Of a stretch of DNA of 32,000 bases, positions 3,463-22,643 are shown piece after piece. The DNA comes from Haloferax volcanii DS2 (GTDB lineage: Archaea > Halobacteriota > Halobacteria > Halobacteriales > Haloferacaceae): NCBI RefSeq assembly GCF_000025685.1, contig NC_013966.1:300001-332000 (forward strand), written 5' to 3'. A program made the translations under genes and the position numbers. The notes beneath the pieces are model-generated. The model worked only from the letters and a program-made list of their open reading frames with translations. It did no database searches and was not told the DNA's origin. Within the stretch, counting starts at the first letter, position 1; each line of letters begins with the position of its first letter.

Positions 3463-4617
3463 ATGATGGATATGAGCGTGACAGTCGAACGAGAAACGGC
3501 CATATCCATCGACGGACTCCGGAAATCGTTCGCCGGAGAGCCAGTACTGCGTGGAATAGACCTATCAATCGACGAGGGAGACTTCTGCGTCGTCGTGGGG
3601 TCCAGCGGGAGCGGGAAGTCGACGCTGCTGAAATGCATCTCGGGATTGCTCTCGTTCGAACGGGGCGCGGTCTTCGTCGACGGCGAAGACGTGACGAACC
3701 GCTCGGTCGAAGCGCGGGACATCGGATTCGTGTTTCAGGACTTCGAAGACCGGCTGTTTCCCCACATGACCGTCGAGGAGAACGTCGCTTTCGGCCTGCG
3801 TGAGGCCGGGACGTACGACGCCGAGGAGATATCCCGGCGGGTGGACGAGACCCTCCAACTGCTGTCTATCTCAGAGACAAAGACGAGTCTGCCCTCGGAG
3901 CTCTCGGGCGGCCAGCAACAGCGGGTGGAACTGGCGCGGCAACTCGTCCGCGAGTGCGACGTGATGTTGTTGGACGACCCGCTTGCGGACTTAGACTACA
4001 AGCTGCAAAAGCGGATGGTGCTGGAGATACGGCGAATCCACGAGGAGTTCGGAAGCACGTTCGTCTACGTGACTCACAACCAAGACCAGGCGCTGAAACT
4101 GGCCGACAAACTCGTCGTGATGAACGACGGCGTCATCGAACAGGTCGGCACGCCCGAGGAGGTGTACGACGCCCCCGAGACGGCGTTCGTCGGCCGGTTC
4201 ATCGGCGACAACAACCCGCTTCTCGGGACGGTGACCGAACACGACGGCGACCGGGTCGTCATCGACACCGACCTTGGGAGCGTCGTCGCCGAGTCGCGGG
4301 AACAGCCGCCGTCGGTGGGCGAGGAGACGATGGTGCTCCTCCGGCCGGAGGACGTCGCCCTCGGGGACGACGCCGACGCGTGCGACAACGGCTCGACGGG
4401 GACCGTCGAAGACCTGACGTACACCGGCGAGTATACCGAGTTCGCCGTCTCGTTTCCAAACGTGACCCGCGAGTTCCAGGTCCGTCGCTCGGGCGATGTC
4501 CGCCGATTCGAGGAGGGCGACGAGATTCGAATCGGCTGGGACGCCGCCGAGGGCGTCTGCTACGACCGGCTGAGCGCGTCCGACTCGGTGACCGTCGACG
4601 ACCTGATGGAGGTGTGA
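3463..4617 (+). CDS. ABC transporter ATP-binding protein (PotA/CysA-like, with C-terminal TOBE-like extension)
   Basis: Walker A 'GSSGSGKST', signature 'LSGGQQQRV', Walker B 'VMLLDDPL', then 'DYKLQKRM'. A C-terminal region of about 130 aa follows the ATPase core. Confidence 0.93.
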   Translation: MMDMSVTVERETAISIDGLRKSFAGEPVLRGIDLSIDEGDFCVVVGSSGSGKSTLLKCISGLLSFERGAVFVDGEDVTNRSVEARDIGFVFQDFEDRLFPHMTVEENVAFGLREAGTYDAEEISRRVDETLQLLSISETKTSLPSELSGGQQQRVELARQLVRECDVMLLDDPLADLDYKLQKRMVLEIRRIHEEFGSTFVYVTHNQDQALKLADKLVVMNDGVIEQVGTPEEVYDAPETAFVGRFIGDNNPLLGTVTEHDGDRVVIDTDLGSVVAESREQPPSVGEETMVLLRPEDVALGDDADACDNGSTGTVEDLTYTGEYTEFAVSFPNVTREFQVRRSGDVRRFEEGDEIRIGWDAAEGVCYDRLSASDSVTVDDLMEV

Positions 4618-4618
4618 G

Positions 4619-5785
4619 ATGGCGACGAGCGACCACACCCACGCGGACGAAGCCAGCGCGGGACTCTCGGTCGACGGCCTGACGAAGATATACCCCGACG
4701 GCACGCTCGCGGTCGACGATATCAGCTTCAGCATCGACGCGGGAGACTTCTGCGTTATCATTGGTCCCTCCGGCTGCGGCAAGTCCACGACGCTCCACTC
4801 ACTCGTCGGTAACGTGCCGCCGACCAAAGGGACTGTGACGCTCGACGGACGCGACATCACGGACGCGCCGACCTATCGCCGCGACATCGGACTGGTCTTT
4901 CAGGACTTCCAGCTGTTCCCGCATCTCACGGTCGAGGAAAACATCCGATACGGGCTCGAACGGATGGACGTGTCCGCCGCGGAAGCCGACGACCACGTGG
5001 CGTCGATGGCCGAGATGATGCAGTTGGAGGGGATGCTTGACCGCGACCCCGCCGAACTCTCCGCCGGCCAGCAACAGCGCGTCGCGTTGGCCCGCTCGCT
5101 GGTGCTCGAACCGAAACTGCTCCTCCTCGACGAACCGCTCGGCGACATGGACTACAAGCTCCAAAAGCGGATGGAGCGGGAGCTGCTCCGACTCCACCGC
5201 GAACTGGAGACGACGTTCGTCTACGTGACCCACGACCAGACGCAGGCGATGCGGCTCGCCGACCAGATGGTCGTGATGAACGACGGGCAAATCGAACACT
5301 CCGGGCCCGTCAGGGAGGTGTACAACCGGCCGCGGACGGCCTTTACCGCCGCGTTCGTCGGGGACTCGAACCTGTTTTCGGGGACGGTGACCGACGTGGA
5401 CGCCGGGGGAGCCGTCGCCGTCGTCGACACCGACTTCGGCGCGTTCCGCGTCTCGACCGCGAACGCCGACTCGAAGCCCGAGAACCTCGTCGACCGGTCG
5501 GTGGTGTTCGCCGTCCGCCCGCAGTTCGTTCGCCTCGAAGACGGCGAGAACGGCCTCGACTGCGACGTTGACGACGTCATCCACCGCTCCGGCGAGGGGA
5601 CGCAAATAGTAATGACCGCGCGCGGGAGCGAGGGGACGAAGCAGATACAGGCGAAGTCCGACGACCGGGTCGAACCGGCCGCCGACGCGGTGACGGTCGG
5701 CTGGAACGCGGACGATGCCATCCTCCTCGAACGGACGAGCGTGGCCGGCGACGTGGACCTCCAAGAGGACATCCTCGGCGAGTAG
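4619..5785 (+). CDS. second ABC transporter ATP-binding protein (PotA-like, distinct paralog)
   Basis: Walker A 'GPSGCGKST', signature 'LSAGQQQRV', Walker B 'LLLLDEPL'. The ATG lies 1 nt after the upstream TGA at 4615-4617. Confidence 0.93.
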   Translation: MATSDHTHADEASAGLSVDGLTKIYPDGTLAVDDISFSIDAGDFCVIIGPSGCGKSTTLHSLVGNVPPTKGTVTLDGRDITDAPTYRRDIGLVFQDFQLFPHLTVEENIRYGLERMDVSAAEADDHVASMAEMMQLEGMLDRDPAELSAGQQQRVALARSLVLEPKLLLLDEPLGDMDYKLQKRMERELLRLHRELETTFVYVTHDQTQAMRLADQMVVMNDGQIEHSGPVREVYNRPRTAFTAAFVGDSNLFSGTVTDVDAGGAVAVVDTDFGAFRVSTANADSKPENLVDRSVVFAVRPQFVRLEDGENGLDCDVDDVIHRSGEGTQIVMTARGSEGTKQIQAKSDDRVEPAADAVTVGWNADDAILLERTSVAGDVDLQEDILGE

Positions 5786-5913
5786 CGGAGCCGGGGGCTG
5801 CCGAATGCGGCAGCGACACGCCGCGGGGGACACGTTCCCCTGGCACTGAGCTGTGCGTAGATTCGTCCATTGTTGTCTTCTTTCTGTGGACATCGAGTCA
5901 CTGTCTGCGAAAA

Positions 5914-5922
5914 TTTTTATAC
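5914..5922 (+). promoter_or_regulatory. TATA-box-like element for a leaderless transcript starting at 5947
   Basis: 'tttttatac' centred about 28 nt upstream of the ATG at 5947. This is the spacing expected for archaeal leaderless mRNAs. Confidence 0.45.
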
Positions 5923-5946: not shown

Positions 5947-7179
5947 ATGGCTATCGAGGTAGACGAGACGCGGTTCGTCGAGACGATGAAAGAGCAAGCC
6001 GAAATCGGCGGCACGGACGGAGGCGGGCTGCACCGCCTCGCGCTCTCCGACGAGGACGCCGAGATTCGGGCGTGGTTCGCAGACCAAGTGTCGGAGGCGG
6101 GGCTCGAACTCACCGTCGACGAGTTCGGCAATATGTTCGGCTACCGCGAGGGGACCGACCCCGACGCCGGGACCATCCTCGTGGGGTCGCATTTGGACTC
6201 CCAGCCGTACGGTGGCATCTACGACGGCGCGATGGGCGTCGTCGCCGCGCTCGAGTTGGTCCGCGCGCTGAACGACGAGGGAATCGAGACGAGACACCCC
6301 ATCGAAATCGTCAACTGGACGAACGAGGAGGGCTCGCGGTTCCAGCCGGCCATGCAGGGCTCCGGCGTCTGGGCGGGCGAACACGACATCGAGACGGAGT
6401 ACGCCAAGACGGACGCCGACGGCGAGGTCTTCGAGGAGGAACTGGAGCGCATCGGCTACAAGGGCGACGTGCCCGCCGAACCGCAGCGCGACTACGACTC
6501 GTACCTCGAACTCCACATCGAGCAGGGACCGTACCTCGAAGAGAACGACGCCGACGTGGGAATCGTCACGGGCATCGTCGGCTTCACCTGGGGCGCGATT
6601 ACCTTCCACGGCGAGGCCGACCACTCGGGGCCGACGCCGATGCACTACCGGAGCGACGCCCTCGTTGCCGCGGCGGACGTCATCACACAGATTCGGCGCA
6701 TCCCCGACACGCTGGGCGAGCGGACCGTCGGCACGACCGGCTACATCGACGCGAAGCCCAACTCCATCAACATCATCCCCGAGGAGGTGACGTTCACGTG
6801 GGGATTCCGCGATCCCGACGAGGCGGTCATCGAGGAGGCTAGGGCGCGCGTCCTCGCGGAGGCGGAGGCGACCGCCGAGCGCGAGGGCGTCAACTGGGAG
6901 TACGAAGACCGGATGTGGACCGACCCGGTTCGGTTCGCGGACGGCTGCGTCGACGCCGTCGAACTGGCGACCGAGGAACTGGGCTACGACGGTATGCGTA
7001 TCTTCAGCGGTGCGGGACACGACGCGACTCACACCCACAAGGTGATGGACACGGGGATGGTGTTTTCGGTCTCCGAGGACGGCAAGAGCCACAGCGAGGA
7101 CGAATACACGAGCTGGGACGACTGCTACAAGGCGGCCAACACGCTGGCGAACGCCGCGTACGAACTGGCCACGGAGTAA
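5947..7179 (+). CDS. M20-family Zn amidohydrolase: N-carbamoyl-L-amino-acid hydrolase / beta-ureidopropionase / allantoate amidohydrolase type
   Basis: 410 aa. The N-terminal 'GGLHRLALSDED...VDEFGNMFG...VGSHLDSQPYGGIYDGAMGVVAALE...WTNEEGSRF' is the characteristic hydantoinase/carbamoylase-family amidase pattern. Confidence 0.9.
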   Translation: MAIEVDETRFVETMKEQAEIGGTDGGGLHRLALSDEDAEIRAWFADQVSEAGLELTVDEFGNMFGYREGTDPDAGTILVGSHLDSQPYGGIYDGAMGVVAALELVRALNDEGIETRHPIEIVNWTNEEGSRFQPAMQGSGVWAGEHDIETEYAKTDADGEVFEEELERIGYKGDVPAEPQRDYDSYLELHIEQGPYLEENDADVGIVTGIVGFTWGAITFHGEADHSGPTPMHYRSDALVAAADVITQIRRIPDTLGERTVGTTGYIDAKPNSINIIPEEVTFTWGFRDPDEAVIEEARARVLAEAEATAEREGVNWEYEDRMWTDPVRFADGCVDAVELATEELGYDGMRIFSGAGHDATHTHKVMDTGMVFSVSEDGKSHSEDEYTSWDDCYKAANTLANAAYELATE

Positions 7180-7181
7180 TT

Positions 7182-8231
7182 ATGAAGGCAAATTTCGACC
7201 GCGAGTTCACTCGCGCAGGCATCTGGAACTGGGAGAAACCGCACATCGAAGACGAGATTCGGTACGCACAGTACGCCGAGGAGGCCGGGCTGGACTCGGT
7301 CTGGCAGGGGGAGTCGCGGCTGGTCCGCGACGCCATGACCGTCATGGGCGCGTACACGCAGGTCACAGACGAGATAGATCTCGCGCCCGGTGTGACGAAC
7401 TGCTACACGCGGAACGTGGCGGTGATGGCACAGACGTTCTCGACGCTCCACGAGCTCTCGGGCGGGCGGATGAAACTGGGCATCGGCGCGTGGTGGGACC
7501 CGCTGGCGTCGAAAGTCGGCATCGAACGGGAGCACCCGCTCCGTCGGATGTGGGAGTACTGTACCGTCACCAAGCGCCTGCTGGACCTCGAAAACGTAAC
7601 GTACGAGGGGCAGACGCTCTCCGTCGACGACATCGAACTCGATCTCGTTCGCTCGGACGCACAGCCCCGTGACGTGCCCATCTACGTCGGCGCGACGGGC
7701 GAGACGATGCACAAGCTGACCGGCGAACTGGTCGGGAAAGGCATCGCCGGCGGCATCTTCATGAACTACCTTATCCCGCCCGAGCACAACCTGAAAGGCC
7801 TCGAAAAGCTGAAAGAGGGCGTCGAAAAGCAGGACGGGACGCTGGAAGGCGCCGACCGCCCGCAGCTCATCGCCGTCGCAATGGACGAGGACGCGGACGT
7901 GGCCATCGACCAGGCGCGCGGTCTCGCCACACAGTACATCGGCCAGCAGCCGCACATCAGGAAGGCGTCGGGCATCGATCCCGAACTGGCGGAGAAAGTT
8001 CAAGCCGAGATGGGCGGGTGGCCGGCCTCCGCCGAGGACATCGAGCGCGCCTCGCAGTACGTCGACGACGACGTGGTGACGAACATCGTCGCTGCGGGCA
8101 CCCGCGACGACGTTATCGACCGGGTCCGCGACTACTGTGCCGCCGGCTGTACCGAGCCGGTCGTCTACCCCCTGACGGACAACATGGAGGCGGTCATCGA
8201 CGCGCTGGCCGAAGCCAAAGCAGAGGCGTAG
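7182..8231 (+). CDS. LLM-class (luciferase-like) flavin/F420-dependent oxidoreductase
   Basis: In-frame ATG at 7182, 2 nt after the upstream TAA. The 349-aa product has an LLM/Mer-like TIM-barrel pattern ('GLDSVWQGESRL', 'GGRMKLGIGAWW', 'PIYVGATGETM'). The 5' extension in ORF-track entry 6915..8231 overlaps the previous gene and is Arg-rich. Confidence 0.82.
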   Translation: MKANFDREFTRAGIWNWEKPHIEDEIRYAQYAEEAGLDSVWQGESRLVRDAMTVMGAYTQVTDEIDLAPGVTNCYTRNVAVMAQTFSTLHELSGGRMKLGIGAWWDPLASKVGIEREHPLRRMWEYCTVTKRLLDLENVTYEGQTLSVDDIELDLVRSDAQPRDVPIYVGATGETMHKLTGELVGKGIAGGIFMNYLIPPEHNLKGLEKLKEGVEKQDGTLEGADRPQLIAVAMDEDADVAIDQARGLATQYIGQQPHIRKASGIDPELAEKVQAEMGGWPASAEDIERASQYVDDDVVTNIVAAGTRDDVIDRVRDYCAAGCTEPVVYPLTDNMEAVIDALAEAKAEA

Positions 8232-8328: not shown

Positions 8329-9084
8329 ATGAGCCGAGTAGCGAACAAGACGGCGTTGATCACCGGCGCGTCCAGCGGCATCGGCCGCGGCGTCGCCGTC
8401 GCACTCGCGGAGGCGGGCGCGACGGTCGGGGTGAATCACTATCCGAGCGACGAGGAGCGAACGCGGGCGGCCGAGGTGGTCGCCGAAATCGAGGCGGCCG
8501 GCGGCGAGGCGGCAGCCTTTCCCGGCGACGTGAGCGACGCGGCGAGCGTCGACGAACTCGTCGACGGGTTCGAGGCGACGTACGGGACGCCGGACGTGCT
8601 CGTCAACAACGCCGGCATCCTCAGGCGGTCCCGTCTCGACGAGATGAGCGTTGCGGAGTGGGACGAGGTGTTGGACGTCGACCTCCGCGGGGTGTTCCTT
8701 GTGACCCGCCGCGTCGTCCCGGGGATGATCGACCGCGGGTCGGGGAGCGTCGTCAACGTGGCGTCGCAGTTGGGCTTCAAGGGTGCGGCGGGGTTCACCC
8801 ACTACTGCGCCGCCAAGGGCGGCGTCATCGCGTTCACTCGCGCGCTGGCGCGCGAAGTCGCCCCCGACGTGCGCGTGAACGCCATCGCGCCCGGGCCGGT
8901 CGAGACGCCCCTTCTCAGCGACATCTCCGAGCAGTGGCGGCGCGAGAAGGCGGCCGAACTCCCGATGGAGCGGGCCGGCCGCGTCGAGGACGTGGCACCG
9001 ACGGCGGTGTTTCTCGCCAGCGACGAGAGCAGCTACTACACGGGGCAGACGCTCTCGCCGGACGGCGGCGACGCCATGCACTGA
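8329..9084 (+). CDS. SDR-family oxidoreductase (classical short-chain dehydrogenase)
   Basis: Cofactor motif 'TGASSGIGRG', 'NNAG', and catalytic 'YCAAK'. 251 aa. Confidence 0.9.
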   Translation: MSRVANKTALITGASSGIGRGVAVALAEAGATVGVNHYPSDEERTRAAEVVAEIEAAGGEAAAFPGDVSDAASVDELVDGFEATYGTPDVLVNNAGILRRSRLDEMSVAEWDEVLDVDLRGVFLVTRRVVPGMIDRGSGSVVNVASQLGFKGAAGFTHYCAAKGGVIAFTRALAREVAPDVRVNAIAPGPVETPLLSDISEQWRREKAAELPMERAGRVEDVAPTAVFLASDESSYYTGQTLSPDGGDAMH

Positions 9085-9144: not shown

Positions 9145-9996
9145 ATGTCGACACAAACCGAACGTTCCGAGGAGACTGTAGCGTCGGGTCAGTCCCCGAT
9201 CACGGGGGTCATCGAGGCCGTCAGCGTCAAGCGAGTACTTCTGGCGTACTTCCTGCTTGCCGCGGCGTACATCTATTTGCCCATCTTTTCGGTCATTGCG
9301 TTTTCGTTCAATTCGGGTGGGCTGACGTTTCCATTCGTCGAGTTCACCTTCGAGTGGTACGGAGAGTTGCTTGCCAACGAGGGACTCATCGAGGCCGTCC
9401 GGCGGTCGGTCACGCTGGCGCTCGTCGTGACCGTCATCACGACGGTGCTTGCGACGGCGACGGCGCTGGCGTACCGCTACGACTTCTGGGGACAGCGCGG
9501 CCTGCTGTTTCTCCTCATCCTGGGCATCATCACGCCCGGCATCACGTACGGCGTCGGCGCGACGCTGCTTCTCAACGAGGTGCTCGGGCTGACGAAGAAC
9601 CTGTGGCTCGCGGTTCCTGTCCACGTCGTCTGGGCGCTTCCCTTCGCGGTCATCGTCCTCCTCGCGGGGTTCCCGCCGGCGCTCAAGGAAAACGAGGAGG
9701 CCGCACGCGTGCTGGGCGCGGGGCCACTCTCGCGGTTCCGAAACGTGATACTCCCGCAGATAGCGCCGACACTCCTCGGTGCGGCCGTATTCGCATTCAC
9801 GCTGTCGTACAACGAGGCGACGCGGAGTCTCCTGCTCGTGGGGAATCAGAACACGATGCCGCTCGAGGTATTCGCCATCGCCGCCGGCACGCGCGTCCAG
9901 CCCTACCTGTTCGCGCTCGGGAGCCTCACCACCGTCTTCTCGACGCTCCTCTTAGCCGCCGCGGGACTGCTCATCGTGTACAACCGCCGGTCCTGA
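9145..9996 (+). CDS. ABC transporter permease (PotC-like)
   Basis: 283 aa with about 6 hydrophobic helices. The N-terminal 'YIYLPIFSVIAFSFN' and the EAA-like loop 'ENEEAARVLGAGPLSRFRNVILPQIAPTLLG' are typical of binding-protein-dependent transport inner-membrane components. Confidence 0.88.
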   Translation: MSTQTERSEETVASGQSPITGVIEAVSVKRVLLAYFLLAAAYIYLPIFSVIAFSFNSGGLTFPFVEFTFEWYGELLANEGLIEAVRRSVTLALVVTVITTVLATATALAYRYDFWGQRGLLFLLILGIITPGITYGVGATLLLNEVLGLTKNLWLAVPVHVVWALPFAVIVLLAGFPPALKENEEAARVLGAGPLSRFRNVILPQIAPTLLGAAVFAFTLSYNEATRSLLLVGNQNTMPLEVFAIAAGTRVQPYLFALGSLTTVFSTLLLAAAGLLIVYNRRS

Positions 9997-10065: not shown

Positions 10066-10830
10066 TCAGTGGCTGGTCCACCCGCCATCGACTGAGAGCA
10101 CCGCTCCGGTGACGAAGTCGCTCTCGTCGGAGGCGAGAAACAGCGCGGCGTCGGCCACGTCTTCGGGCGACCCGAACGTCGGCCACGGCGTCGCGGCCTC
10201 CCATTCGGCGATTATCTCGGGGGCGTTCTCGCGCCACTCGACGTTCTGCGCCGTCTCGATGATACCGGGAGCCAAGGCGTTGATGTTCACCTCGTCGGGC
10301 GCGTAGTCCAGCGCCATCTGGCGGGTGAGGTTGGCGACGGCCCCTTTCGAAGCGCAGTAGGCGGCGCTCCGGCCGCCGCCGACCAGTCCGAAGATGGACG
10401 CGAGGTTGACGACCTTGCCGGCGCTCTCGCGGAGGTGCGGCAGGGCGTACTTCGAACAGAGGAACGTCCCGCGGGCGTTCACGTCTACGATGGCGTCCCA
10501 GTCCTCGACGGGCGTCGCTTCGGCCTCATACTGGTAGTAGATGCCCGCGTTGTTCACCAGCACGTCTAACTGACCGTAGGAGTCGACCGCGTGTTCGACG
10601 GCCGCCTCCGCCGCCGCCGGGTCGGACACGTCGCACTCGACGAAGGAGTACTCCGCGCCGGTGTCGTCTAATTTCTCGAACACTGACCGCTCGTCGTCCA
10701 GTTTCGGCTCCCGGCGCACGTCGGCGACGACCACCGTCGCCCCCTCGCGGCCGAACGCCGCCGCGATTGCGTTGCCGATACCGCTCGATGCACCAGTGAC
10801 TAACGCGACCGAACCGTCTAATCGTGACAC
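10066..10830 (-). CDS. SDR-family oxidoreductase
   Basis: 'TGASSGIGNA', 'NNAG', catalytic 'YCASK'. 254 aa. Opposite strand to the flanking transporter genes. Confidence 0.9.
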   Translation of the reverse strand: MSRLDGSVALVTGASSGIGNAIAAAFGREGATVVVADVRREPKLDDERSVFEKLDDTGAEYSFVECDVSDPAAAEAAVEHAVDSYGQLDVLVNNAGIYYQYEAEATPVEDWDAIVDVNARGTFLCSKYALPHLRESAGKVVNLASIFGLVGGGRSAAYCASKGAVANLTRQMALDYAPDEVNINALAPGIIETAQNVEWRENAPEIIAEWEAATPWPTFGSPEDVADAALFLASDESDFVTGAVLSVDGGWTSH

Positions 10831-13466: not shown

Positions 13467-14375
13467 ATGCTTAGCATGGGAGACATTGACGTAGCTATCG
13501 GTGTAGACGCCGACTGTGTAGCTGGCTGGCTCGGGTCGTACGGCGGGGCCGACTCGCCGGCGGACCTCTCTCGGGGCCTCTCGGCGGGCAACGAGGGAAT
13601 TCCGAGAATGGTCCAGCTGTTCGAAGACGAGGGTATCGACACGACGTGGTACATTCCCGGCCACACCATCGAGACGTTCCGCGACGAGGTGGAGGCGGTC
13701 GCCGCGGGCGGCCACGAAATCGGAGTCCACGGGTACTCACACGAGAACCCGACGGACCTCTCGCGGGAACAGGAAGATGCCATCATCGAGAAATCTATCG
13801 AGCTCATCGAGGATGTGACGGGCGACCCGCCGGTGGGTCACCGCGCGAGCTGGTGGGAGTTCAGCGAGAACACGCCGGAACTGGTCGAGAAACACGGCTT
13901 CCTGTACGACAGCAGCCTGATGGAACGAGAGTTCGAGCCGGGCTACATGCGGAAAGGCGACAGCTGGACGAAGATTCAGTACGAACAGGACGCCGAGACG
14001 TGGATGTCGCCGTACGAGTACGGCGCTGAGACCGACGTGGTGGAGATACCTATCAGCTGGTATCGTGACGACATTCCGCCGATGCTGTTCATCAAACAGC
14101 CCCTCTACCACTCGGGGTACAAGGACCCGAACATGATGTACGAGCAGTACTACAAAAAGCAGTTCGAGTACCTGTACAACCGCCGCGGGGCGGGCGTCTA
14201 CACGTTCACCATCCACCCCGACCTGCACGGCCTGCCACACATGATTCCGTTCCTCGAAGACTTCATTCAGTACGTGAAGAGCCACGAGAACGCCGAGTTC
14301 AAGACGCTCGAAGCGGTCGCCCGGAAGTACAAAGACGACCCGAGCGTCTACGAGAGCGAAAGCGGCTACGTCTGA
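13467..14375 (+). CDS. polysaccharide deacetylase-fold (NodB/PuuE-like) hydrolase
   Basis: The pattern 'IGVDADCVAGW...TWYIPGHT...GHEIGVHGYSHE...' matches the NodB-homology/PuuE-type fold. The start is placed at internal ATG 13467 (alternative 13476). The upstream part of ORF 13386..14375 overlaps the permease 3' region. Confidence 0.8.
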   Translation: MLSMGDIDVAIGVDADCVAGWLGSYGGADSPADLSRGLSAGNEGIPRMVQLFEDEGIDTTWYIPGHTIETFRDEVEAVAAGGHEIGVHGYSHENPTDLSREQEDAIIEKSIELIEDVTGDPPVGHRASWWEFSENTPELVEKHGFLYDSSLMEREFEPGYMRKGDSWTKIQYEQDAETWMSPYEYGAETDVVEIPISWYRDDIPPMLFIKQPLYHSGYKDPNMMYEQYYKKQFEYLYNRRGAGVYTFTIHPDLHGLPHMIPFLEDFIQYVKSHENAEFKTLEAVARKYKDDPSVYESESGYV

Positions 14376-15789: not shown

Positions 15790-17169
15790 ATGCCAGTCGA
15801 CACACTGATTACTGGTGGTACGGTCGTCACCGCGACGGACACGTTCGACGCCGACGTAGCGATAGACGGCGAGGAAATCGTCGCCGTCGGCGACGCGTCG
15901 TCGATGCCGGACGCGACGGAGACGATTGACGCCGAGGGACTGCTCGTGATGCCCGGCATGATTGACCCGCACGTCCACATCGACGACATGTTCTCGATAG
16001 ACACCCACGAGACGGCGTCGGCGGCGGCGGCCCTCGGGGGCGTCACCTCCTACGTCGACTTCGCCTGGCAGGCGTGGACGGGCGAGTTGTCCATCTTCGA
16101 GGAAGGCGGGACGCTGTTAGAGGGTATCGAGCGCAAGCGCGAGAAGGCCGCGAACGCCCACGTCGACTACGCCTTCCACGGGGCTATCACCCGCGAGGAC
16201 CCGGCGGTGCTGTCGGAGCTCGCAGACGCCGTCGACGCAGGGGTCTCCTCGTTCAAGATGTTCACCACCTACGAACACGGCCTCTCGAACGGGTTCATGC
16301 ACACCGTGATGGAGGAGATAGCCGACATCGACGCCGTCGGCGTCTACCACACCGAGGACGCCTCGCTCATCGACGCGCTCACAGCGCGGTTCAAAGCGGA
16401 GGGTCGCGGCGACCCGACCGATTACCTGCAGTCGCGGCCGGACTACGCCGAGGCGATGGCCGCCGAGGATGCCGTGCGGATGGCCCAAGAGACGGGGGCG
16501 AAGTACTACGGCATCCACACCTCCTGCCGCAAGTCCGCGGAGGTGCTGTCGCAGTTCCGCGACGACGGCTCGGCGGTCCGCGCAGAGACCTGCACCCACT
16601 ACACGACGCTCACCGACGACGTGTTCGAGACGCAGGGTAACCTTCCCATGATAGCGCCGCCAATCCGCAAACAGGATGACGTAGAGGCGATGTTCGAACA
16701 TCTCGCCGACGGCACGCTCGACGTGGTTTCGACGGACCACTGCGGCTACAAACGCGAGTCCAAGGAGGTAGACAACTGGTGGGACTCGACGTTCGGCGCG
16801 AACGCCCTTCAGGTGTCCGTGCCGGTGTTCCACGACGAGGCGGTCAACGAGCGCGACTTCTCGTACCCGTTCCTCGTCCGCGTGATGAGCCGGAACCCCG
16901 CGCGCATCTTCGGGATGTCGGACAAAGGCACTCTGGACCCTGGCACGGACGCGGACGTGATTCTGTTCGACCCCGAGGAGACGTACACGATTACTGCCGA
17001 GGACAACGCCTCGAACGCCGACTTCTCCATCTACGAGGGCCGAGAGGTCACCGGTCGCGTGAAAAAGACGTTCGTCCGCGGCGAACTCATCGCTGACGAC
17101 GGCGAAATCGTCTCCGAGCCGGGCCACGGCGAGTACATCAACCGGGAACTGCCGGACTGGGACGCCTGA
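15790..17169 (+). CDS. dihydropyrimidinase / D-hydantoinase (cyclic amidohydrolase)
   Basis: 'LITGGTVV...' N-terminus, metal-binding 'IDPHVHID', the carboxylated-lysine context 'SSFKMFTTY', and the 'STDHC' region. The start is at ATG 15790; the ORF-track start at 15691 is a TTG. Confidence 0.92.
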   Translation: MPVDTLITGGTVVTATDTFDADVAIDGEEIVAVGDASSMPDATETIDAEGLLVMPGMIDPHVHIDDMFSIDTHETASAAAALGGVTSYVDFAWQAWTGELSIFEEGGTLLEGIERKREKAANAHVDYAFHGAITREDPAVLSELADAVDAGVSSFKMFTTYEHGLSNGFMHTVMEEIADIDAVGVYHTEDASLIDALTARFKAEGRGDPTDYLQSRPDYAEAMAAEDAVRMAQETGAKYYGIHTSCRKSAEVLSQFRDDGSAVRAETCTHYTTLTDDVFETQGNLPMIAPPIRKQDDVEAMFEHLADGTLDVVSTDHCGYKRESKEVDNWWDSTFGANALQVSVPVFHDEAVNERDFSYPFLVRVMSRNPARIFGMSDKGTLDPGTDADVILFDPEETYTITAEDNASNADFSIYEGREVTGRVKKTFVRGELIADDGEIVSEPGHGEYINRELPDWDA

Positions 17170-17220: not shown

Positions 17221-18993
17221 ATGAGTAACGCAGCACAGGAGCCAGCGGTGCCGACCGACAGCGACGGCGCACCGCTGTTTCCACACGCGAACGTGGTCGC
17301 GGTGAACGCCTTCGCCGACGTGCTGGCCTCCGCGCTGGGGCCGGCGTCGCGCGACAAGATGATTGTCAACGCGCTCAGAAGCCGCGGGCCGGACGAAAAC
17401 GAGGTTCCCCACGCGGCCAACGAGATGACAGCCGACGACATCACCGTCACGAGCGACGGGGCGAGCCTGCTGGAGTCGCTTCCGACCACGCATCCCATCG
17501 CGCCGGTCGTGACGCGGGTTATCGGCCCGGAGCGGCCGGGCGAGACGGCCGTCGAGGGCGCGGACATCCCCGACGGCGTCACCGCGACGGTGGTGCTCAT
17601 GTCGGAGCTGCTCGACGAGGCGGTCGAGCTGTTCGACCGAGGTGTCCACCCGTACGACCTCCGAGCCGGTTACCACCGGGCGATGGACGCCGCCCTCGCG
17701 GAACTTGACGCGGCGACGACGCCGCACGACGGCCGGCGAGCGACGGACCTCGCGATTGCGCGGACCGCGATGACCGGAAACGACGTGGGCGGCGTCGTCG
17801 GCGGGTTGGCCGAGGGCGTCGTCGACGCCGTCGACGCCGTCGGCTTCCCGACCGAGGCGACGCTTGCGGTGCGGTGCGTGAGCAAGGGGTCGATGAGTGA
17901 CTCCCGGCTCGTCGACGGCGCGGTGCTCGGCGTGAACCACCGCGTCTCGGAGGAGATGCCTGTCCGCGTCGAGGACGCGACCGTGCTCGCGCTGGGCGGA
18001 TTCAAGCGGTCGCTGTCGGACCCAGAGCTGTGGACCGAGGGCGCCTCTCTTGACCTCTCGTCGCCCGACGACGCCGCGGCGATGGAAGACGTGTACACGG
18101 AGCGGCGCGAGCGGGTGGTCGACCGCATCGACGACCTCGGGGTCGACGTCGTCGTCACCCGCCTCGGCATCAACGACGAGTACCAGCGACTCCTCGCCGA
18201 CCGCGGCATCGTCGGCATCAGGCGAGTGAACCGGCTCCATCTCGAACAGGTGGCGCGGGCGACGGGCGCAAGCGTCGTGACCAACCCGACCGACGTCTCC
18301 GCGGGCGACCTCGGACACGCCGGCGTCGTCGAGGAAGTGATGCGCGAACCGCGCCGGCACCGCCGGAAAAACCGGTTTATGACCGTCTTCGAGGGCTGTG
18401 AGAACCCCGACTCGGTGACGGTGCTCCTCCGCGGTGTGACCGATCAAATCGCGGCGCAGGCGACGAGCGAAGTGCGGAAGGCCGCCGCGGCCGTCGGCGC
18501 GGCCCGCGGCCGCGGCGGGAACCGGGGTGGTGTCATCCCCGGCGGCGGCGCAATCGAACTCCGCATGGCCGCCGCCGTCCGCGAGGCCGCGCGCGCGGAG
18601 CCGTCGCGGGCGCAACTGGCGATGACGGCGTTCGCCGACGCCCTCGAAGCCGTCGTGGCGACGCTCGTCCGCAACGCGGGCGAAGACCACGTCGAACTGC
18701 TGGCCGACCTGAAGGCGGCACACGCCGCGGGCGACGACGCCGCGGGGTTCGTCCTTCCGGACGGCGAGGTCGGAAACGCCGCCGAGTGCGGCGTCTTCGA
18801 CGCCGCGGCGACGAAGCGCCGGGTCGTGCTGCGCGCCTCGGAGGTGGCGAATCTCGTGCTCAGAGTCGACGACGCCGTGGACGCCGACTTCACCGAGGAG
18901 CCGGCGGGACCGGGCGAGGCAATCTACGACGAAGAGGCCGAAAAACACGCTGACTACCTCGAACACACCGACGGGACGCGCTGGGATATCTGA
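17221..18993 (+). CDS. highly divergent group II chaperonin (thermosome/CCT) family paralog
   Basis: Recognisable equatorial-domain motifs: 'LGPASRDKMIV' (compare LGPKGMDKMLV), 'ITVTSDGASLL' (compare ITITNDGATIL), 'IPGGGAIE' and 'VFDAAATKR'. The nucleotide-binding GDGTT(T/S) motif reads 'PDGVTAT' (nt 17569-17589) and there are N-terminal insertions. Confidence 0.85.
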   Translation: MSNAAQEPAVPTDSDGAPLFPHANVVAVNAFADVLASALGPASRDKMIVNALRSRGPDENEVPHAANEMTADDITVTSDGASLLESLPTTHPIAPVVTRVIGPERPGETAVEGADIPDGVTATVVLMSELLDEAVELFDRGVHPYDLRAGYHRAMDAALAELDAATTPHDGRRATDLAIARTAMTGNDVGGVVGGLAEGVVDAVDAVGFPTEATLAVRCVSKGSMSDSRLVDGAVLGVNHRVSEEMPVRVEDATVLALGGFKRSLSDPELWTEGASLDLSSPDDAAAMEDVYTERRERVVDRIDDLGVDVVVTRLGINDEYQRLLADRGIVGIRRVNRLHLEQVARATGASVVTNPTDVSAGDLGHAGVVEEVMREPRRHRRKNRFMTVFEGCENPDSVTVLLRGVTDQIAAQATSEVRKAAAAVGAARGRGGNRGGVIPGGGAIELRMAAAVREAARAEPSRAQLAMTAFADALEAVVATLVRNAGEDHVELLADLKAAHAAGDDAAGFVLPDGEVGNAAECGVFDAAATKRRVVLRASEVANLVLRVDDAVDADFTEEPAGPGEAIYDEEAEKHADYLEHTDGTRWDI

Positions 18994-19082: not shown

Positions 19083-20552
19083 TCAGGCGTCCGGCCAGCG
19101 CTCGATGTAGACGGCCTCATCGGTGTAGAAGCGAATCGCGTCGTCGCCCTGCGCGTGGAGGTCGCCGAAGAAGGAGTCCTTCCAGCCGCCGAAGTGGAAG
19201 AACGCCATCGGCGCGGCGGTGCCCGCGTTCACCGCGAGGTTGCCCGCCTCCACCTCGTGTCGGAACCGCTTGGCGTCGGCCCCGCGGTCGGTGAACAGAC
19301 TGGACGCGTTGCCGAACTCGCTTCGGTTGACGACCTCGACGGCGTGGTCGAAGTCGTCGGCGCGGACAAGCGCCAACACCGGCCCGAAAATCTCCTCGCG
19401 AGCAATCGTGTCGTCGGGCGACACGTCGCCGAAGACGGTCGGCCCGAGGAAGCTCCCCTCGGCGGGCACGTCGGCGTCGCGGCCGTCGTACAGGAGCGTC
19501 GCCCCCTCTTCGACCCCGGTTTCGACGTACTCCTTGACGCGGTCGCGGGCCGCCCCGGAGATGAGCGGGCCCATGTCGACGTCCTCGGAGAGACCGTTGT
19601 CCAACGTCATCCCCGCCGCGATGTCGACGACGCACTCTGCGAACTCGTCGTAAATCGCGTCCTCGACGACCGCGACGGGGTTGGCGAGGCAGCGCTGGCC
19701 CGTGTTGGCGAACGCGGATCCGATGGTCTGTTCGGCCGCGAAGTCGAGGTTCGCGGAGGCGGCGACGACGATATGATTTTTCGCGCCGCCCTGCGCCTGC
19801 ACGCGCTTGCCGTGCGCGGCGGCCGTCTTGTAGACGTGCTTGGCGACGGGCGTGCTCCCGACGAAGGAGATGCCCTCGACGCCGTCGTGTTCGACGAGCG
19901 CGTTCACCGTGTCGGCGCCCCCGTTGACGAGTTGGACGACGCCGTCCGGGAAGCCGGCCTCGTCGACGAGTTCGAAGATGAGCCGGGCGGTCACGGGCGT
20001 CTTCTCGCTCGGCTTGAGCACGAACGCGTTGCCGGTGGCGACCGCGTACGGCAGGAACCACAGCGGAATCATCCCCGGGAAGTTAAACGGCGTGACCGCA
20101 GCGAACACCCCGAGCGGCTTTCTGACCGCCGTTTCGTCGATGCCGGGCGCGGCGTTCGGAAGGTGGCCCGCCTGCATCATCGACGGGATGCCGCAGGCGA
20201 CCTCGACGTTCTCGATGCCTCGGCGCAGTTCGCCTTTGGCCTCGTCGAACGTCTTGCCGTGCTCGCGGACGAGCGCCTCGGCGATGTCGTCTTGGTTCGC
20301 TTCGAGCAGTCGCTTCAGCTCGAACAGGGGTTGGATGCGCTCTTCGACGGGCGTCGACCGCCACGTCTCGAACGCCGCCTTCCCCGCGCTCACCGCGTCG
20401 TCGATGTCCGCCGCGGTGCTGTAGGTGACCGACGCGACGGTGTCTCTCGTCGCCGGGTCGACCACGTCCCGCCCGTCGTCGCCGGACGCCGGACGCCATT
20501 CCCCGTCGACGTAGTTCTGTACTTCGCCTCCCGCTGAAGCGTCTTCTCGCAT
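19083..20552 (-). CDS. mmsA: methylmalonate-semialdehyde / malonate-semialdehyde dehydrogenase (CoA-acylating aldehyde dehydrogenase)
   Basis: 489 aa of ALDH fold with catalytic Cys context 'GQRCLA', 'FVLKPSEKTP', and the MMSDH-typical C-terminal 'FHFGGWKDSFFGDLHAQG'. Confidence 0.92.
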   Translation of the reverse strand: MREDASAGGEVQNYVDGEWRPASGDDGRDVVDPATRDTVASVTYSTAADIDDAVSAGKAAFETWRSTPVEERIQPLFELKRLLEANQDDIAEALVREHGKTFDEAKGELRRGIENVEVACGIPSMMQAGHLPNAAPGIDETAVRKPLGVFAAVTPFNFPGMIPLWFLPYAVATGNAFVLKPSEKTPVTARLIFELVDEAGFPDGVVQLVNGGADTVNALVEHDGVEGISFVGSTPVAKHVYKTAAAHGKRVQAQGGAKNHIVVAASANLDFAAEQTIGSAFANTGQRCLANPVAVVEDAIYDEFAECVVDIAAGMTLDNGLSEDVDMGPLISGAARDRVKEYVETGVEEGATLLYDGRDADVPAEGSFLGPTVFGDVSPDDTIAREEIFGPVLALVRADDFDHAVEVVNRSEFGNASSLFTDRGADAKRFRHEVEAGNLAVNAGTAAPMAFFHFGGWKDSFFGDLHAQGDDAIRFYTDEAVYIERWPDA

Positions 20553-20723: not shown

Positions 20724-22061
20724 ATGCCGGAGCGAGAACCAAGCGGCGGGTCCGAACTGAACGAGACGGAGCGGGTCGACAAAGAGCACGTGTTCGGGAC
20801 GTGGTCGTTCCAGAAGGACGTATCGCCGACGCAGGTCGTTGACGCCGACGGAGCGCAGTTCACCACTGCGGACGGTGGCCAGTACGTCGACTTTTCGAGC
20901 CAGTTGATGTGCTCGAACCTCGGTCACTCCGCGGACGCGGTCATCGACGCGGTCGAAGAACAGATGCGGAAGGCGGCGTACGTCTCGCCGGGCTACACGA
21001 CCGATGCGCGGGCGAAGCTCGGAAAGAAGCTCGCGGAGGTGACACCCGGGGATCTCTCGAAGACGTTCTTCTCCACGAGTGGAACCGAAGCGGTGGAGGC
21101 GGCAATCAAAATCGCCCGGTTCTATACGGGGAAACAGAAAGTCGTCTCGCGCTATCGTTCGTACCACGGCGCGACGTACGGGTCGATAAGCGTCACCGGC
21201 GACCCCCGCCGGCTGCCCGCCGAACCGGGGATTCCAGGGACTATCAAAGCGCCCGACCCGTACGCCTACGGCTCGACGCTTGACCCGATGGAGAGTGTCG
21301 AGTACATCGACGAGATGCTCGAACTCGAAGGCGACACCGTCGCGGCGATTCTGGTTGAGCCAATCGTCGGGTCGAACGGCATACTCGTCCCACCGGACGA
21401 GTACCTGCCGCGGCTGAAGGAAATCGCCCACGACCACGGGGCGCTGCTCATTTGCGACGAGGTGATGTCCGGGTTCGGACGGACCGGCGAGTGGTTCGGC
21501 TGCGACGTGTTCGACGTCGAACCCGACATCATGACGATGGCGAAGGGGCTGACCGGCGCGTACCAACCGCTCGGGGCGACCATCGTCACGTCCGAAATCG
21601 CCGAGCACTTCGAGGAGAACATGTTCTGTCACGGTCACACGTACTCCGGCCACCCGGCCGCCGTCGCCGCCGGCCTTGCAACCATCGAGACCTACCAAAA
21701 AGAGAACCTCATCGACCGCGCCAACGAGATGGGCGGGTACGTCGGCGAGCGCATCGAGGAGCTCGCGGCGGACCATCCCAGCGTCGGCGAGACGCGCGGC
21801 GTCGGTCTGTTCCGCGGCATCGAGCTGTCGCGCCGCGCCGACGAGCGCGTCCCCTTCGGTACACGCTCGGACAAGATTAGTTCGGGGAGCACCGTCGTCG
21901 ACGAGGTGGCCGCAACCGCGAAGGAAAACGGGGCGTACGTCGCGAACATGATCAACACGCTCATCATCGCGCCCCCGCTCACCATCACGAAAGACGAAGT
22001 CGACACCGCCATCGACGCGCTCAATGCCGGGCTGGCGGTGTCCGACGCGGCGATGGACTAG
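20724..22061 (+). CDS. class III PLP aminotransferase (omega-amino acid / beta-alanine:pyruvate type)
   Basis: 'SGTEAVEAAIKIAR', 'LICDEVMSGFGRTG', the PLP-lysine context 'IMTMAKGLTGAY', and 'GHTYSGHP'. Confidence 0.92.
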   Translation: MPEREPSGGSELNETERVDKEHVFGTWSFQKDVSPTQVVDADGAQFTTADGGQYVDFSSQLMCSNLGHSADAVIDAVEEQMRKAAYVSPGYTTDARAKLGKKLAEVTPGDLSKTFFSTSGTEAVEAAIKIARFYTGKQKVVSRYRSYHGATYGSISVTGDPRRLPAEPGIPGTIKAPDPYAYGSTLDPMESVEYIDEMLELEGDTVAAILVEPIVGSNGILVPPDEYLPRLKEIAHDHGALLICDEVMSGFGRTGEWFGCDVFDVEPDIMTMAKGLTGAYQPLGATIVTSEIAEHFEENMFCHGHTYSGHPAAVAAGLATIETYQKENLIDRANEMGGYVGERIEELAADHPSVGETRGVGLFRGIELSRRADERVPFGTRSDKISSGSTVVDEVAATAKENGAYVANMINTLIIAPPLTITKDEVDTAIDALNAGLAVSDAAMD

Positions 22062-22087
22062 CCCCGACGGACCGACACGGCTTTTTC

Positions 22088-22108
22088 CCGACGGCGCATA
22101 GCCGTCGG
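22088..22108. promoter_or_regulatory. 8-5-8 perfect inverted repeat abutting the Lrp start codon, preceded by a T5 run
   Basis: 'ccgacggc' (22088-22095), spacer 'gcata', 'gccgtcgg' (22101-22108). The T5 run is at 22082-22086 and the ATG at 22110. Confidence 0.4.
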
Positions 22109-22109
22109 T

Positions 22110-22643
22110 ATGACCAACGGACTCCGGTCGGTCGCGGATTTGGATGAGACGGACCTCGCCATCCTCGAGCGCGTCGAAGCCGACTTCGACGTGAGTTTGG
22201 AGACGCTGGCGGTTGAACTCGACATCTCGAAATCGGCCGTCCACTACCGGATCAACAAGCTGAAAGAAAGTGGTGTGATCCGCGGCGTCACGGCCGACGT
22301 GGACCCGCGGTCGCTCGGGTTGGAGATGGTCGCCATCACCGACGTCTCCGTCACCCACGAGACGGGTTACTCCGACGAAATCGGCGCGGAACTCGACGCC
22401 CTCGTCGGCGTCGAACAGGTGTACTACACGATGGGCGACATCGACTTCGTCGTCATCAGTCGCGTCCAATCCCGAGAACAACTGAACGCGCTCATCGACC
22501 GGATGGTGGCTATCGATGGCGTGAATGAGACCTCCTCGAAGTTCGTGATGCAGGAGTTCGAAAACGACCGCAGATACGTCTCGAACCTCAGCGAGGAGGC
22601 CCGCGCCGCCGTCATCAACCCGTCGAACGACGCCGACGGCTGA
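22110..22643 (+). CDS. Lrp/AsnC-family transcriptional regulator
   Basis: An N-terminal HTH ('LDETDLAILERVEADFDVSLETLAVELDISKSAVHYRINKLKESGVI') is followed by an AsnC-type ligand/oligomerisation domain. Confidence 0.9.
   Translation: MTNGLRSVADLDETDLAILERVEADFDVSLETLAVELDISKSAVHYRINKLKESGVIRGVTADVDPRSLGLEMVAITDVSVTHETGYSDEIGAELDALVGVEQVYYTMGDIDFVVISRVQSREQLNALIDRMVAIDGVNETSSKFVMQEFENDRRYVSNLSEEARAAVINPSNDADG

Follow-up and report, generated by a model that had tools for sequence, protein, structure and literature searches.

A putative reductive pyrimidine-type catabolic island of Haloferax volcanii with a candidate F420-type oxidoreductase for its first step

Genes of the island and their expression

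We analysed a window of 32,000 nucleotides of Haloferax volcanii DS2 DNA, in which gene order places the island described here at HVO_A0293-A0307 of the megaplasmid pHV4. Pfam, NCBIfam and PDB searches find the genes named in an initial annotation where it had put them and in the families it had given. On the plus strand the island opens with two ABC ATPases carrying Pfam ABC_tran and TOBE_2 domains, the potA1-like HVO_A0293 (3463..4617) and the potA2-like HVO_A0294 (4619..5785). A TATA-like element (5914-5923) then precedes the gene of an M20 carbamoylase-family amidase (amaB2, HVO_A0295; 5947..7179), which is followed by that of a Mer-like LLM oxidoreductase (HVO_A0295A; 7182..8231). Next come a first short-chain dehydrogenase, SDR 1 (8329..9084; Pfam adh_short_C2, 215 bits), for which malonate-semialdehyde or 3-hydroxy-acid oxidoreduction is one possible role, ABC permease 1 (9145..9996), the minus-strand SDR 2 (10066..10830; adh_short_C2, 224 bits), a TAT-signal, potD-like solute-binding protein (HVO_A0299; 11003..12424; SBP_bac_8 and a weak TAT_signal match) and ABC permease 2 (HVO_A0300; 12467..13378), both permeases matching BPD_transp_1. 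The two ATPases, two permeases and binding protein form a PotABCD-like system that is polyamine-type by Pfam family; the binding protein itself has no NCBIfam match, and its Atlas neighbours are generic archaeal solute-binding proteins only.

The remaining genes, apart from two on the minus strand, again lie on the plus strand. They begin with a NodB-fold, polysaccharide-deacetylase-family hydrolase (HVO_A0301; 13467..14375, its open frame starting at 13386; Pfam Polysacc_deac_1), which scores 316 bits against structure 3qbu (Helicobacter HP0310) but no more than 50-57 bits against PuuE allantoinase. An L-asparaginase-family amidohydrolase follows on the minus strand (14482..15456; Asparaginase and Asparaginase_C), and then a cyclic amidohydrolase of the D-hydantoinase/dihydropyrimidinase type (dpyS, HVO_A0303; 15790..17169) and a divergent thermosome (group II chaperonin) paralog (HVO_A0304; 17221..18993; Cpn60_TCP1, 325 bits), which stays below the cut-offs of the thermosome NCBIfam models. 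The NodB-fold protein, asparaginase and thermosome paralog had gone without mention in the text of the initial annotation. The island closes with a CoA-acylating malonate/methylmalonate-semialdehyde dehydrogenase, MMSDH (mmsA, HVO_A0305; 19083..20552, minus strand), a class III omega-aminotransferase (gabT6, HVO_A0306; 20724..22061; Aminotran_3, 316 bits) and an Lrp/AsnC-family regulator (22110..22643; HTH_24 and AsnC_trans_reg).

In four public runs of stranded RNA sequencing, reads cover each island gene on the expected strand, including the minus-strand genes of SDR 2 and the asparaginase. In a published comparison of growth on L-alanine versus ammonium the entire cluster, the LLM gene included, is raised by log2 4.6-6.5 (PMC6801745). 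Since uracil was present under both of the conditions compared (PMC6801745), this induction reflects nitrogen control rather than induction by pyrimidines. The same study, working from transcriptomics on exactly this locus, with the same gene order and annotation, proposed that DpyS and AmaB2 take dihydrouracil to beta-alanine and that GabT6 and MmsA follow, and suggested L-alanine transport for the ABC system; it did not remark on the absence of a dihydropyrimidine dehydrogenase and gave HVO_A0295A no role (PMC6801745). The initial view that such a route is not known to be experimentally characterised in haloarchaea must be amended in that the route had already been proposed for this locus.

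Shared core genes and an optional module

Comparison with about 45 haloarchaeal loci and 295 Halobacteria genomes shows that the Haloferax island is a composite. Its conserved core consists of the M20 carbamoylase, the LLM oxidoreductase, the hydantoinase, the class III aminotransferase, MMSDH and the Lrp regulator. Orthologs of the M20 gene (70-87% identity) adjoin the hydantoinase gene in 17 loci, and in 12 loci, spread over several genera, an LLM ortholog (72-89%) adjoins the M20 gene; orthologs of the aminotransferase (73-85%), MMSDH (65-81%) and the regulator (61-73%) occur in about 14, 11 and 10 loci, respectively. Hydantoinase, M20 enzyme, aminotransferase, MMSDH (or AFOR) and regulator recur in several haloarchaeal families, usually flanked by NCS1 or NCS2 nucleobase permeases, and an isochorismatase-family gene joins the cluster in some relatives (L046-L049, L015, L018 and L023).

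The ABC importer, SDR 2, NodB protein, asparaginase and thermosome paralog make up the optional module. Of all parts the transporter is conserved least, recurring in only three to four related loci: orthologs of ATPase 1 (54-64%) are confined to L023 and L049, ATPase 2 has orthologs (65%) in these two loci, permease 1 in L023 and L052, and the binding protein (65%) in L052. SDR 2 has an ortholog (74%) only in L023, and those of the asparaginase (61-63%) occur in L023 and L052. Orthologs of the thermosome paralog (48-60%) adjoin the hydantoinase ortholog in L007 and L049, and in L023 and L052 several kilobases separate the two. SDR 1 orthologs (65-72%) are found in only four loci, L046-L049, where they follow the LLM gene or the isochorismatase gene behind it. 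The ABC importer, counted by the initial annotation as completing the catabolic set, therefore falls outside the conserved set, the Haloferax island having an importer where most of its relatives have a nucleobase permease.

This distribution bears on one alternative to a dedicated route, namely that the locus serves general scavenging under nitrogen starvation, with PotABCD-like import of polyamines, beta-alanine or amino acids and only loosely associated amidohydrolases. Such a reading would accommodate the polyamine-type transporter, the rise of all genes on L-alanine, and the fact that omega-transaminase and MMSDH also handle polyamine-derived beta-alanine. However, the transporter on which it leans is just the part that relatives seldom share, while the amidohydrolase, LLM and aminotransferase genes move as a group without it, and we consider this reading very unlikely.

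Candidate enzymes for the steps after ring reduction

The canonical Pyd pathway comprises PydA or PreT/PreA, PydB and PydC together with a beta-alanine aminotransferase and a malonate-semialdehyde dehydrogenase; in yeast and Agrobacterium the ureidopropionase-type carbamoylase has the M20 form. The post-reduction order of dihydropyrimidinase (DHPase)-type amidohydrolase, M20 carbamoylase, omega-aminotransferase and CoA-acylating MMSDH is present, by family, in the island, so that the step 2, step 3 and beta-alanine branch assignments made initially hold at the family level, and the nucleobase permeases of the relatives are a further likeness. The MMSDH scores 514 bits with TIGR01722 against a cut-off of 448, and the nearest structures to the aminotransferase are taurine:2-oxoglutarate and other omega-transaminases, its amine substrate probably being beta-alanine or beta-aminoisobutyrate. 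The M20 enzyme, at 408 bits with TIGR01879 (cut-off 204), has as nearest structures L-carbamoylases and the N-carbamoyl-beta-alanine amidohydrolase 8c46 (314-327 bits, 8c46 at 314), and scores 243 bits against yeast beta-alanine synthase versus 187 bits against allantoate amidohydrolase; it is thereby placed in the family, and beta-ureidopropionase is its putative role.

The hydantoinase reaches 344 bits with TIGR02033, under the dihydropyrimidinase equivalog cut-off of 393, and its nearest solved structures are D-hydantoinases and DHPases (245 bits). All metal ligands and Tyr155 are kept, while two substrate-contact positions differ from the canonical enzymes, Ala replacing Ser288 and the PNG motif of Asn336 reading FG. 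We think it probable that steps 2-5 act on a dihydropyrimidine-like ureide.

A candidate for the first step

What the island lacks is any known enzyme for the reduction itself. The sole real DHO_dh domain (PF01180) in the 4.01-Mb genome belongs to a 351-aa PyrD, apart from which there are two weak fragments, and the Fer4_20/PreT domain (PF14691) is absent from the genome, controls for the model being positive. PF09663 (barbiturase, AtzD/TrzD family) has no match in the genome, and the control genomes are equally without one. None of the 295 sampled Halobacteria genomes contains a dihydropyrimidine dehydrogenase; each has one PyrD-type DHO_dh, and the single second copy found is also PyrD-like. 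The absence of PydA/PreTA, first noticed for the island, is thus genome-wide and extends across the sampled haloarchaea. This leaves the two alternatives considered at the outset, an already saturated substrate or a non-orthologous reductase, and the comparative data favour the second. Among the reductase candidates then named, the LLM protein gains by its adjacency to the carbamoylase in 12 loci, while the two SDRs, kept in four (SDR 1) and one (SDR 2), lose ground.

The ATG of the LLM gene lies 2 nt downstream of the M20 stop codon, so the two genes are translationally coupled. Its 14 best NCBIfam matches are all to F420-class LLM families, every one under its cut-off, so that from these matches F420 use can only be predicted. 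A phmmer search gives E=2e-28 against Mer versus E=1e-6 against FMN-type LLMs. With the AlphaFold model (pLDDT 91.6) Foldseek returns Mer with bound F420 as the closest structures (TM 0.85/0.90, rmsd 2.2-2.3), and F420 enzymes fill ranks 1-22. Judged by sequence and predicted fold, the protein is nearer to the F420-binding LLMs of the Mer/Fgd/Adf clade than to FMN monooxygenases. F420 biosynthesis genes have been listed for Haloferax volcanii (PMC8305020), and we find homologs of cofH and a chromosomal Fno in the genome.

We therefore propose, as a reading with about equal chances of holding and failing, that these genes specify a catabolic route of the reductive pyrimidine type whose first step is carried out by an F420H2-dependent LLM enzyme. 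Uracil, thymine or a closely similar compound would in this way be scavenged as a source of nitrogen and of carbon as well. The Mer-like protein would reduce the pyrimidine C5=C6 bond with F420H2, regenerated by the chromosomal Fno, and so stand in for PydA/PreTA. DpyS would open the dihydropyrimidine ring, AmaB2 would free beta-alanine or beta-aminoisobutyrate with CO2 and NH3, the aminotransferase would move the amino group onto a 2-oxo acid, and MMSDH would yield acetyl-CoA or propionyl-CoA from the malonate or methylmalonate semialdehyde, expression presumably being controlled by the Lrp-type regulator and by nitrogen limitation. What the data establish are the gene families, the lack of known first-step enzymes, the synteny, the co-induction and the transcription of the genes; every substrate in this scheme, as well as the reliance of the LLM protein on F420 and its role as reductase, we infer. 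That this protein is the pyrimidine ring reductase seems to us an evenly poised question. If so, the island would be an archaeal case of a candidate LLM-for-PydA replacement, in a genetically tractable host.

The pairing of LLM and M20 genes speaks for this proposal. An LLM ortholog of more than 70% identity occurs in eight genomes, each of which also has an M20 gene orthologous at 76% or above. In 18 of 21 genomes there is a second, paralogous pair (LLM 50%, M20 45-50%) with 3-10 kb between its two members. This second pair and its metagenomic relatives lie in clusters with SsnA-, HyuA-, YgeX-, YgeW- and XDH-like genes, where an F420 LLM is predicted in place of the PydA-homologous reductase (PMC12507026). 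On the other hand, about 31 of the 39 sampled genomes carrying an AmaB2 ortholog have neither an LLM ortholog nor PydA, so the LLM protein cannot be the universal first enzyme, and such clusters would require another reductase or a saturated substrate. Full hydantoinase-M20-aminotransferase clusters in Natrialbaceae-like genomes belong to this LLM-less set.

Could the Haloferax route likewise start from a saturated cyclic ureide or N-carbamoyl compound that the cell imports from the brine, such as a dihydropyrimidine, a 5-substituted hydantoin or an N-carbamoyl amino acid, with no ring reduction at all and the LLM protein unrelated or concerned with side-chain redox? The many LLM-less and PydA-less genomes would then be the natural case, and the ABC importer in place of a nucleobase permease, the broad L-carbamoylases among the closest solved relatives of the M20 enzyme and the two altered contact positions of the hydantoinase would all fit. 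Yet aminotransferase and MMSDH are kept at 65-85% identity beside the hydantoinase, which argues for a beta-amino acid product rather than alpha-amino acids from hydantoins; most relatives flank the core with NCS1/NCS2 permeases, and the tight, twice-evolved LLM-M20 pairing would go unexplained. Systems of the hyu type for 5-substituted hydantoins have a hydantoin racemase and an NCS1 hydantoin permease along with hydantoinase and carbamoylase; neither a racemase nor an NCS1 gene is found among the window genes, though some related loci do have NCS1 permeases. We regard a saturated starting substrate as unlikely.

If reduction does occur, the ring might still be that of another unsaturated heterocycle, for instance orotate, a modified pyrimidine or, by analogy with reductive urate breakdown, a purine-derived dione. 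The nearest LLM relatives beyond the orthogroup, about 50% identical, belong to reductive purine clusters with SsnA-, HyuA-, YgeX-, YgeW- and XDH-like genes, some LLM-less clusters are accompanied by xanthine-permease-type NCS2 genes, and on the other megaplasmid a hydantoinase paralog of 62% identity sits in a purine (uricase) cluster, where it has been read as an allantoinase (PMC8305020). Against this, no XDH-, SsnA-, YgeX- or YgeW-type gene is found among the window genes, nor is there a molybdenum hydroxylase, PALP lyase or carbamoyltransferase among them; the type-A hydantoinase orthologs all cluster separately from the purine-cluster paralogs, and the M20 enzyme is only 36-37% identical to its purine-cluster counterpart. 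The beta-alanine/MMSDH branch, moreover, suits pyrimidines and not the diaminopropionate end of the purine route. A heterocycle other than uracil or thymine thus appears quite improbable.

The purine clusters supply a predicted parallel to the proposed replacement of PydA. In reductive uric-acid clusters an F420 LLM is predicted to replace the PydA-homologous reductase, UacX/YgfK (Li et al. 2025, PMC12507026). The island shares with them the LLM subfamily (about 50% identity) and the placement of the LLM gene beside ring-opening amidohydrolases and an M20 ureido-acid hydrolase; unlike the island, they carry XdhD, SsnA, HyuA, YgeW or UacY, and YgeX. A genetic precedent concerns the reaction. 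In mureidomycin/napsamycin biosynthesis SSGG-03002/NpsU, an F420/FMN-type oxidoreductase, reduces the uracil C5=C6 bond according to genetic evidence, in vitro activity not having been obtained (PMC10714638). The likeness lies in a deazaflavin/flavin-type saturation of the uracil ring; the difference is that NpsU is biosynthetic and acts on a uridyl-peptide intermediate.

The Rut pathway, too, relies on an LLM-fold enzyme, the monooxygenase RutA, along with the isochorismatase-family hydrolase RutB, and an isochorismatase-family gene accompanies some of the related clusters. We reject the island protein as a RutA: the RutA model TIGR03612 has no match at the LLM gene (four weak ones elsewhere in the genome reach at most 70 bits against a cut-off of 498), in fold and sequence the protein is of the Mer-like F420 kind rather than an FMN monooxygenase, and a hydantoinase would be superfluous in such a pathway.

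Next to the island, on the minus strand, lies an APC-family amino-acid permease (1644..3020; Pfam AA_permease_2, 120 bits) of uncertain membership, whose 78%-identical ortholog adjoins an LLM gene of the 50% type in the haloarchaeal locus L054.

Gene content and transcription of the island

Open reading frames and family searches gave us the gene order of the window, which lies on a replicon that is presumably pHV4, in a source genome of 4,012,900 bp and five replicons, one other of which measures 437,906 bp. All the genes named in the initial annotation were found where it had placed them. Two ABC ATPases with a TOBE_2 domain (3463-4617 and 4619-5785) are followed by an M20 hydantoinase/carbamoylase-family amidase (AmaB2, 5947-7179), a luciferase-like (LLM) oxidoreductase (HVO_A0295A, 7182-8231), the SDR protein SDR1 (8329-9084), an ABC permease (9145-9996), a second SDR protein on the minus strand (SDR2, 10066-10830), a TAT-signal solute-binding protein (11003-12424), another ABC permease (12467-13378), a NodB-fold hydrolase (13467-14375) and an L-asparaginase on the minus strand (14482-15456). 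Next come a D-hydantoinase/dihydropyrimidinase-like amidohydrolase (DpyS, 15790-17169), a divergent thermosome paralog (17221-18993), a CoA-acylating methylmalonate-semialdehyde dehydrogenase on the minus strand (MMSDH, or MmsA, 19083-20552), a class III aminotransferase (GabT6, 20724-22061) and an Lrp/AsnC regulator (22110-22643).

This is the order given for HVO_A0293 to HVO_A0306 in PMC6801745, which reports a log2 4.6-6.5 induction of the whole cluster, luciferase-family HVO_A0295A included, on L-alanine versus ammonium. Since uracil was present in both media of that study, the induction reflects nitrogen control and co-regulation rather than induction by pyrimidines. In the scheme put forward by its authors, dihydrouracil is turned into beta-alanine by DpyS and AmaB2 and then carried on to acetyl-CoA by GabT6 and MmsA; the LLM protein was left without a role and the absent first enzyme was not remarked upon. 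The locus and the proposed roles of four of its enzymes are thus already in print; what our analysis adds is that the reductase is missing and that the LLM protein is a candidate for it. The literature we searched contained neither enzymology for the HVO_A0293-HVO_A0306 locus nor any paper on an F420-dependent uracil reductase.

In stranded RNA data from four public runs, every island gene is covered by reads on the expected strand. Coverage is unbroken over the M20 and LLM genes. Just two bases separate the M20 stop codon (7177-7179) from the LLM start codon, and a TATA-like element lies upstream of the pair. Some reads in all four runs join 17852-17869 to 8549-8566 with CCT between, but we rejected a 17869-to-8549 rearrangement, because the joined 38-mer has an exact match at chromosome C1:2095628 and the reads therefore stem from another gene, a mapping artefact. 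A search of 14 upstream regions of the island for shared 9-mers, with at most one mismatch, returned only GC-rich words of the kind that composition predicts, so that no Lrp operator can be proposed.

A proposed pyrimidine pathway lacking its usual first enzyme

Reductive pyrimidine degradation is a textbook pathway, whose first enzyme (dihydropyrimidine dehydrogenase, PydA/PreTA) is to our knowledge always an iron-sulfur flavoprotein of the DHO_dh family. The initial annotation had seen no such enzyme in this stretch, and its absence extends to the whole source genome, where the only match to the DHO_dh domain is a 351-aa PyrD, the DPD/PreT Fe-S domain has no match (with positive controls), and the search for the RutA monooxygenase returned nothing relevant. 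Barbiturase had no match in the source genome either, but the control genomes were silent too, and this result carries no weight. Together with the gene families, the genome-wide lack of a canonical reductase supports the earlier reading of the region as a hydantoin or reductive-pyrimidine-type island.

The 295 sampled Halobacteria genomes have one PyrD-type DHO_dh match each, except for one genome with two; we rejected the second copy, in genome G189, as a PydA, since it is a 388-aa PyrD-like frame. Close hydantoinase homologs occur in 51 of these 295 genomes and M20 orthologs of at least 61% identity in about 39. That PydA is missing throughout, also where these two enzymes occur, makes its absence a feature of the class, not of the strain. 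The island itself, on the other hand, is an accessory trait of this megaplasmid, because orthologs of the LLM protein, the hydantoinase and the M20 amidase are absent from all 15 other Haloferax genomes sampled.

The hydantoinase scores below the dihydropyrimidinase equivalog cut-off. Ser288 is replaced by Ala and the PNG motif at Asn336 by FG, as throughout the haloarchaeal subfamily; all metal ligands and Tyr155 are retained. For the M20 enzyme we rejected the NCBIfam subfamily name, allantoate amidohydrolase, since solved allantoate amidohydrolases score far below carbamoylases and since the true purine cluster, with paralogs of its own, sits on the other megaplasmid.

The LLM protein as a candidate ring reductase

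How could the pathway begin? The best family matches of the LLM protein are all F420-class LLM models, although every score lies below its cut-off, and the nearest solved sequences are Mer enzymes. The best match to its confident structure model (pLDDT 91.6) is Mer in complex with F420 (TM 0.85/0.90); structural neighbours 1-22 are all F420 enzymes, and FMN monooxygenases rank lower. The source genome encodes an Fno homolog above its cut-off as well as cofH-like genes. Thus the LLM protein is likely to use F420, a cofactor whose biosynthesis genes are listed in PMC8305020 and whose role in haloarchaea is there called enigmatic.

In 12 loci, which belong to Haloferacaceae, Haladaptataceae, Natrialbaceae and others, an LLM ortholog of 72-89% identity directly adjoins the M20 gene. 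Eight sampled genomes have such an LLM ortholog, and every one of them also has an M20 ortholog with 76% identity or more. A second LLM group, of about 50% identity, is found in 21 sampled Halobacteria genomes, 18 of which have an M20 gene of 45-50% identity at 3-10 kb. Metagenomic relatives of this second group lie amid xanthine-dehydrogenase subunits and SsnA/HyuA-like amidohydrolases, with ornithine-carbamoyltransferase-like and carbamate-kinase-like genes and cofC. This corresponds to the gene set that PMC12507026 assigns to reductive uric-acid degradation. In that study, Chloroflexota have a putative F420 luciferase-family enzyme in place of the PydA-homologous reductase. Taken with these contexts, this places one LLM subfamily in two nucleobase pathways that run parallel. 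Each time a DHO_dh-type reductase is absent, and the LLM gene is accompanied by an M20 hydrolase of ureido acids and an amidohydrolase that opens the ring. More distant LLM relatives, at 40-61% identity, again lie beside AmaB-type M20 genes or cyclic/SsnA-type amidohydrolases, the representatives at 40-44% being on short contigs in which only adjacency of the amidohydrolases can be read.

A representative of the second group, locus L053 (G220:C10:172863-192862), has in order an M20 gene, a D-aminoacylase-like amidohydrolase, two Bmp binding proteins with ABC components, the LLM gene, a PALP enzyme and two further amidohydrolases. This locus and 20 other sampled Halobacteria genomes have SsnA-, HyuA-, UacY- and YgeX-like genes, Bmp-type ABC uptake and an AmaB-type M20, and the LLM of 50% identity occupies the place of YgfK/UacX. 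The cluster of these aerobic haloarchaea resembles the "anaerobic" reductive uric-acid pathway.

In the pathway we envisage, the LLM protein with F420H2 would reduce the C5=C6 bond of the pyrimidine, DpyS would open the ring and AmaB2 would remove the carbamoyl group, after which the aminotransferase and then MMSDH would pass the carbon to acetyl- or propionyl-CoA. The steps after ring reduction, with aminotransferase and MMSDH counted singly, follow from established family knowledge. For the first step, we infer a possible role of the LLM protein from gene context, predicted fold and the purine parallel; there is a precedent, known from genetics, in mureidomycin biosynthesis, where a deazaflavin/flavin-type enzyme saturates the uracil ring (PMC10714638). 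Tentatively, and with confidence slightly short of even, we propose that HVO_A0295A and its orthologs reduce uracil/thymine with F420H2, which would make them dihydropyrimidine dehydrogenases of unrelated fold, and that in other haloarchaea the paralogous LLM-carbamoylase pair does the corresponding reaction on rings derived from purines.

Our results bear on the role of F420 in haloarchaea. If the proposal is true, a deazaflavin LLM enzyme at the first step would be a clean non-orthologous displacement, would explain archaeal pyrimidine-degradation clusters devoid of PydA and would be the first defined catabolic role for F420 in haloarchaea. Haloferax volcanii is a genetically tractable model archaeon, in which the question is directly testable. 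If the LLM protein is not the reductase, the conserved core would still point to an as yet uncharacterised way of scavenging nitrogen from cyclic ureides in hypersaline environments.

About 31 of the 39 or so genomes with an M20 ortholog have no LLM gene. Complete LLM-less clusters have other genes in its place, for an aldehyde:ferredoxin oxidoreductase, a CocE/NonD hydrolase, a zinc-ADH-family (acryloyl-CoA-reductase-like) protein and a transducer; either another reductase is present in them, or saturated ureides can serve as the entry point of the core. These LLM-less hydantoinase-carbamoylase-aminotransferase clusters (loci L008-L010, L017, L019, L032, L062 and L063) are without MMSDH and also have two NCS2 permeases; their transducer is of the PAS-MCP type.

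Conserved core, optional module and neighbouring genes

The comparison took in 29 haloarchaeal loci surrounding hydantoinase relatives, to which 18 more regions were added. Its synteny tables rest on tblastn, since GC3-based gene picking overlooked genes where GC was lower. The clusters fall into two kinds. In type A, a hydantoinase of 63-84% and an M20 amidase of 70-87% identity, mostly adjacent, occur with a class III aminotransferase (73-85%), MMSDH (65-81%) and Lrp, in a neighbourhood of NCS1 or divergent NCS2 nucleobase permeases; the Haloferax island holds no nucleobase permease. In type B the hydantoinase is accompanied by a xanthine-type permease and by another M20, which is 36-37% identical to AmaB2. 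In the source organism, type B is represented by locus L059 (G000:C4:348356-349732) on the 437,906-bp replicon, where a hydantoinase paralog of 62% identity lies next to a xanthine-type NCS2 permease; this is the purine cluster that PMC8305020 discusses. A maximum-likelihood tree places all 20 type-A hydantoinases in one group with no type-B sequence inside, at moderate support (83/88). The paralogs of the window and of L059 differ after the catalytic Asp, with STDHCGY versus STDHVA.

The ABC importer, SDR2, the NodB protein, the asparaginase and the thermosome paralog occur together in only three or four genomes (loci L023, L049 and L052) and on this distribution form an optional module. Thus the importer that had been called dedicated to the set is present, but it lies outside the conserved core. 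A ligand search for its binding protein (11003-12424) gave no NCBIfam match and only generic archaeal SBP clusters in the protein atlas.

An isochorismatase-family hydrolase, weakly RutB/biuret-hydrolase-like, stands beside the LLM or hydantoinase gene in loci L046-L049, L015, L018 and L023; the Haloferax island has none. The amino-acid permease just upstream of the island (1644-3020, minus strand) has a 78%-identical ortholog adjoining a 50%-type LLM gene in another haloarchaeon (locus L054), and may be a functional member of LLM clusters. The NodB-fold protein (13467-14375) is strikingly close to Helicobacter pylori HP0310 (3qbu, 316 bits) and far from PuuE allantoinase. Finally, the thermosome paralog (17221-18993) has relatives of 48-60% identity in four other haloarchaea; in L007 and L049 they adjoin the hydantoinase ortholog, and in L023 and L052 they lie several kb from it. 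This suggests a dedicated chaperonin-like partner of the hydantoinase or of the module.
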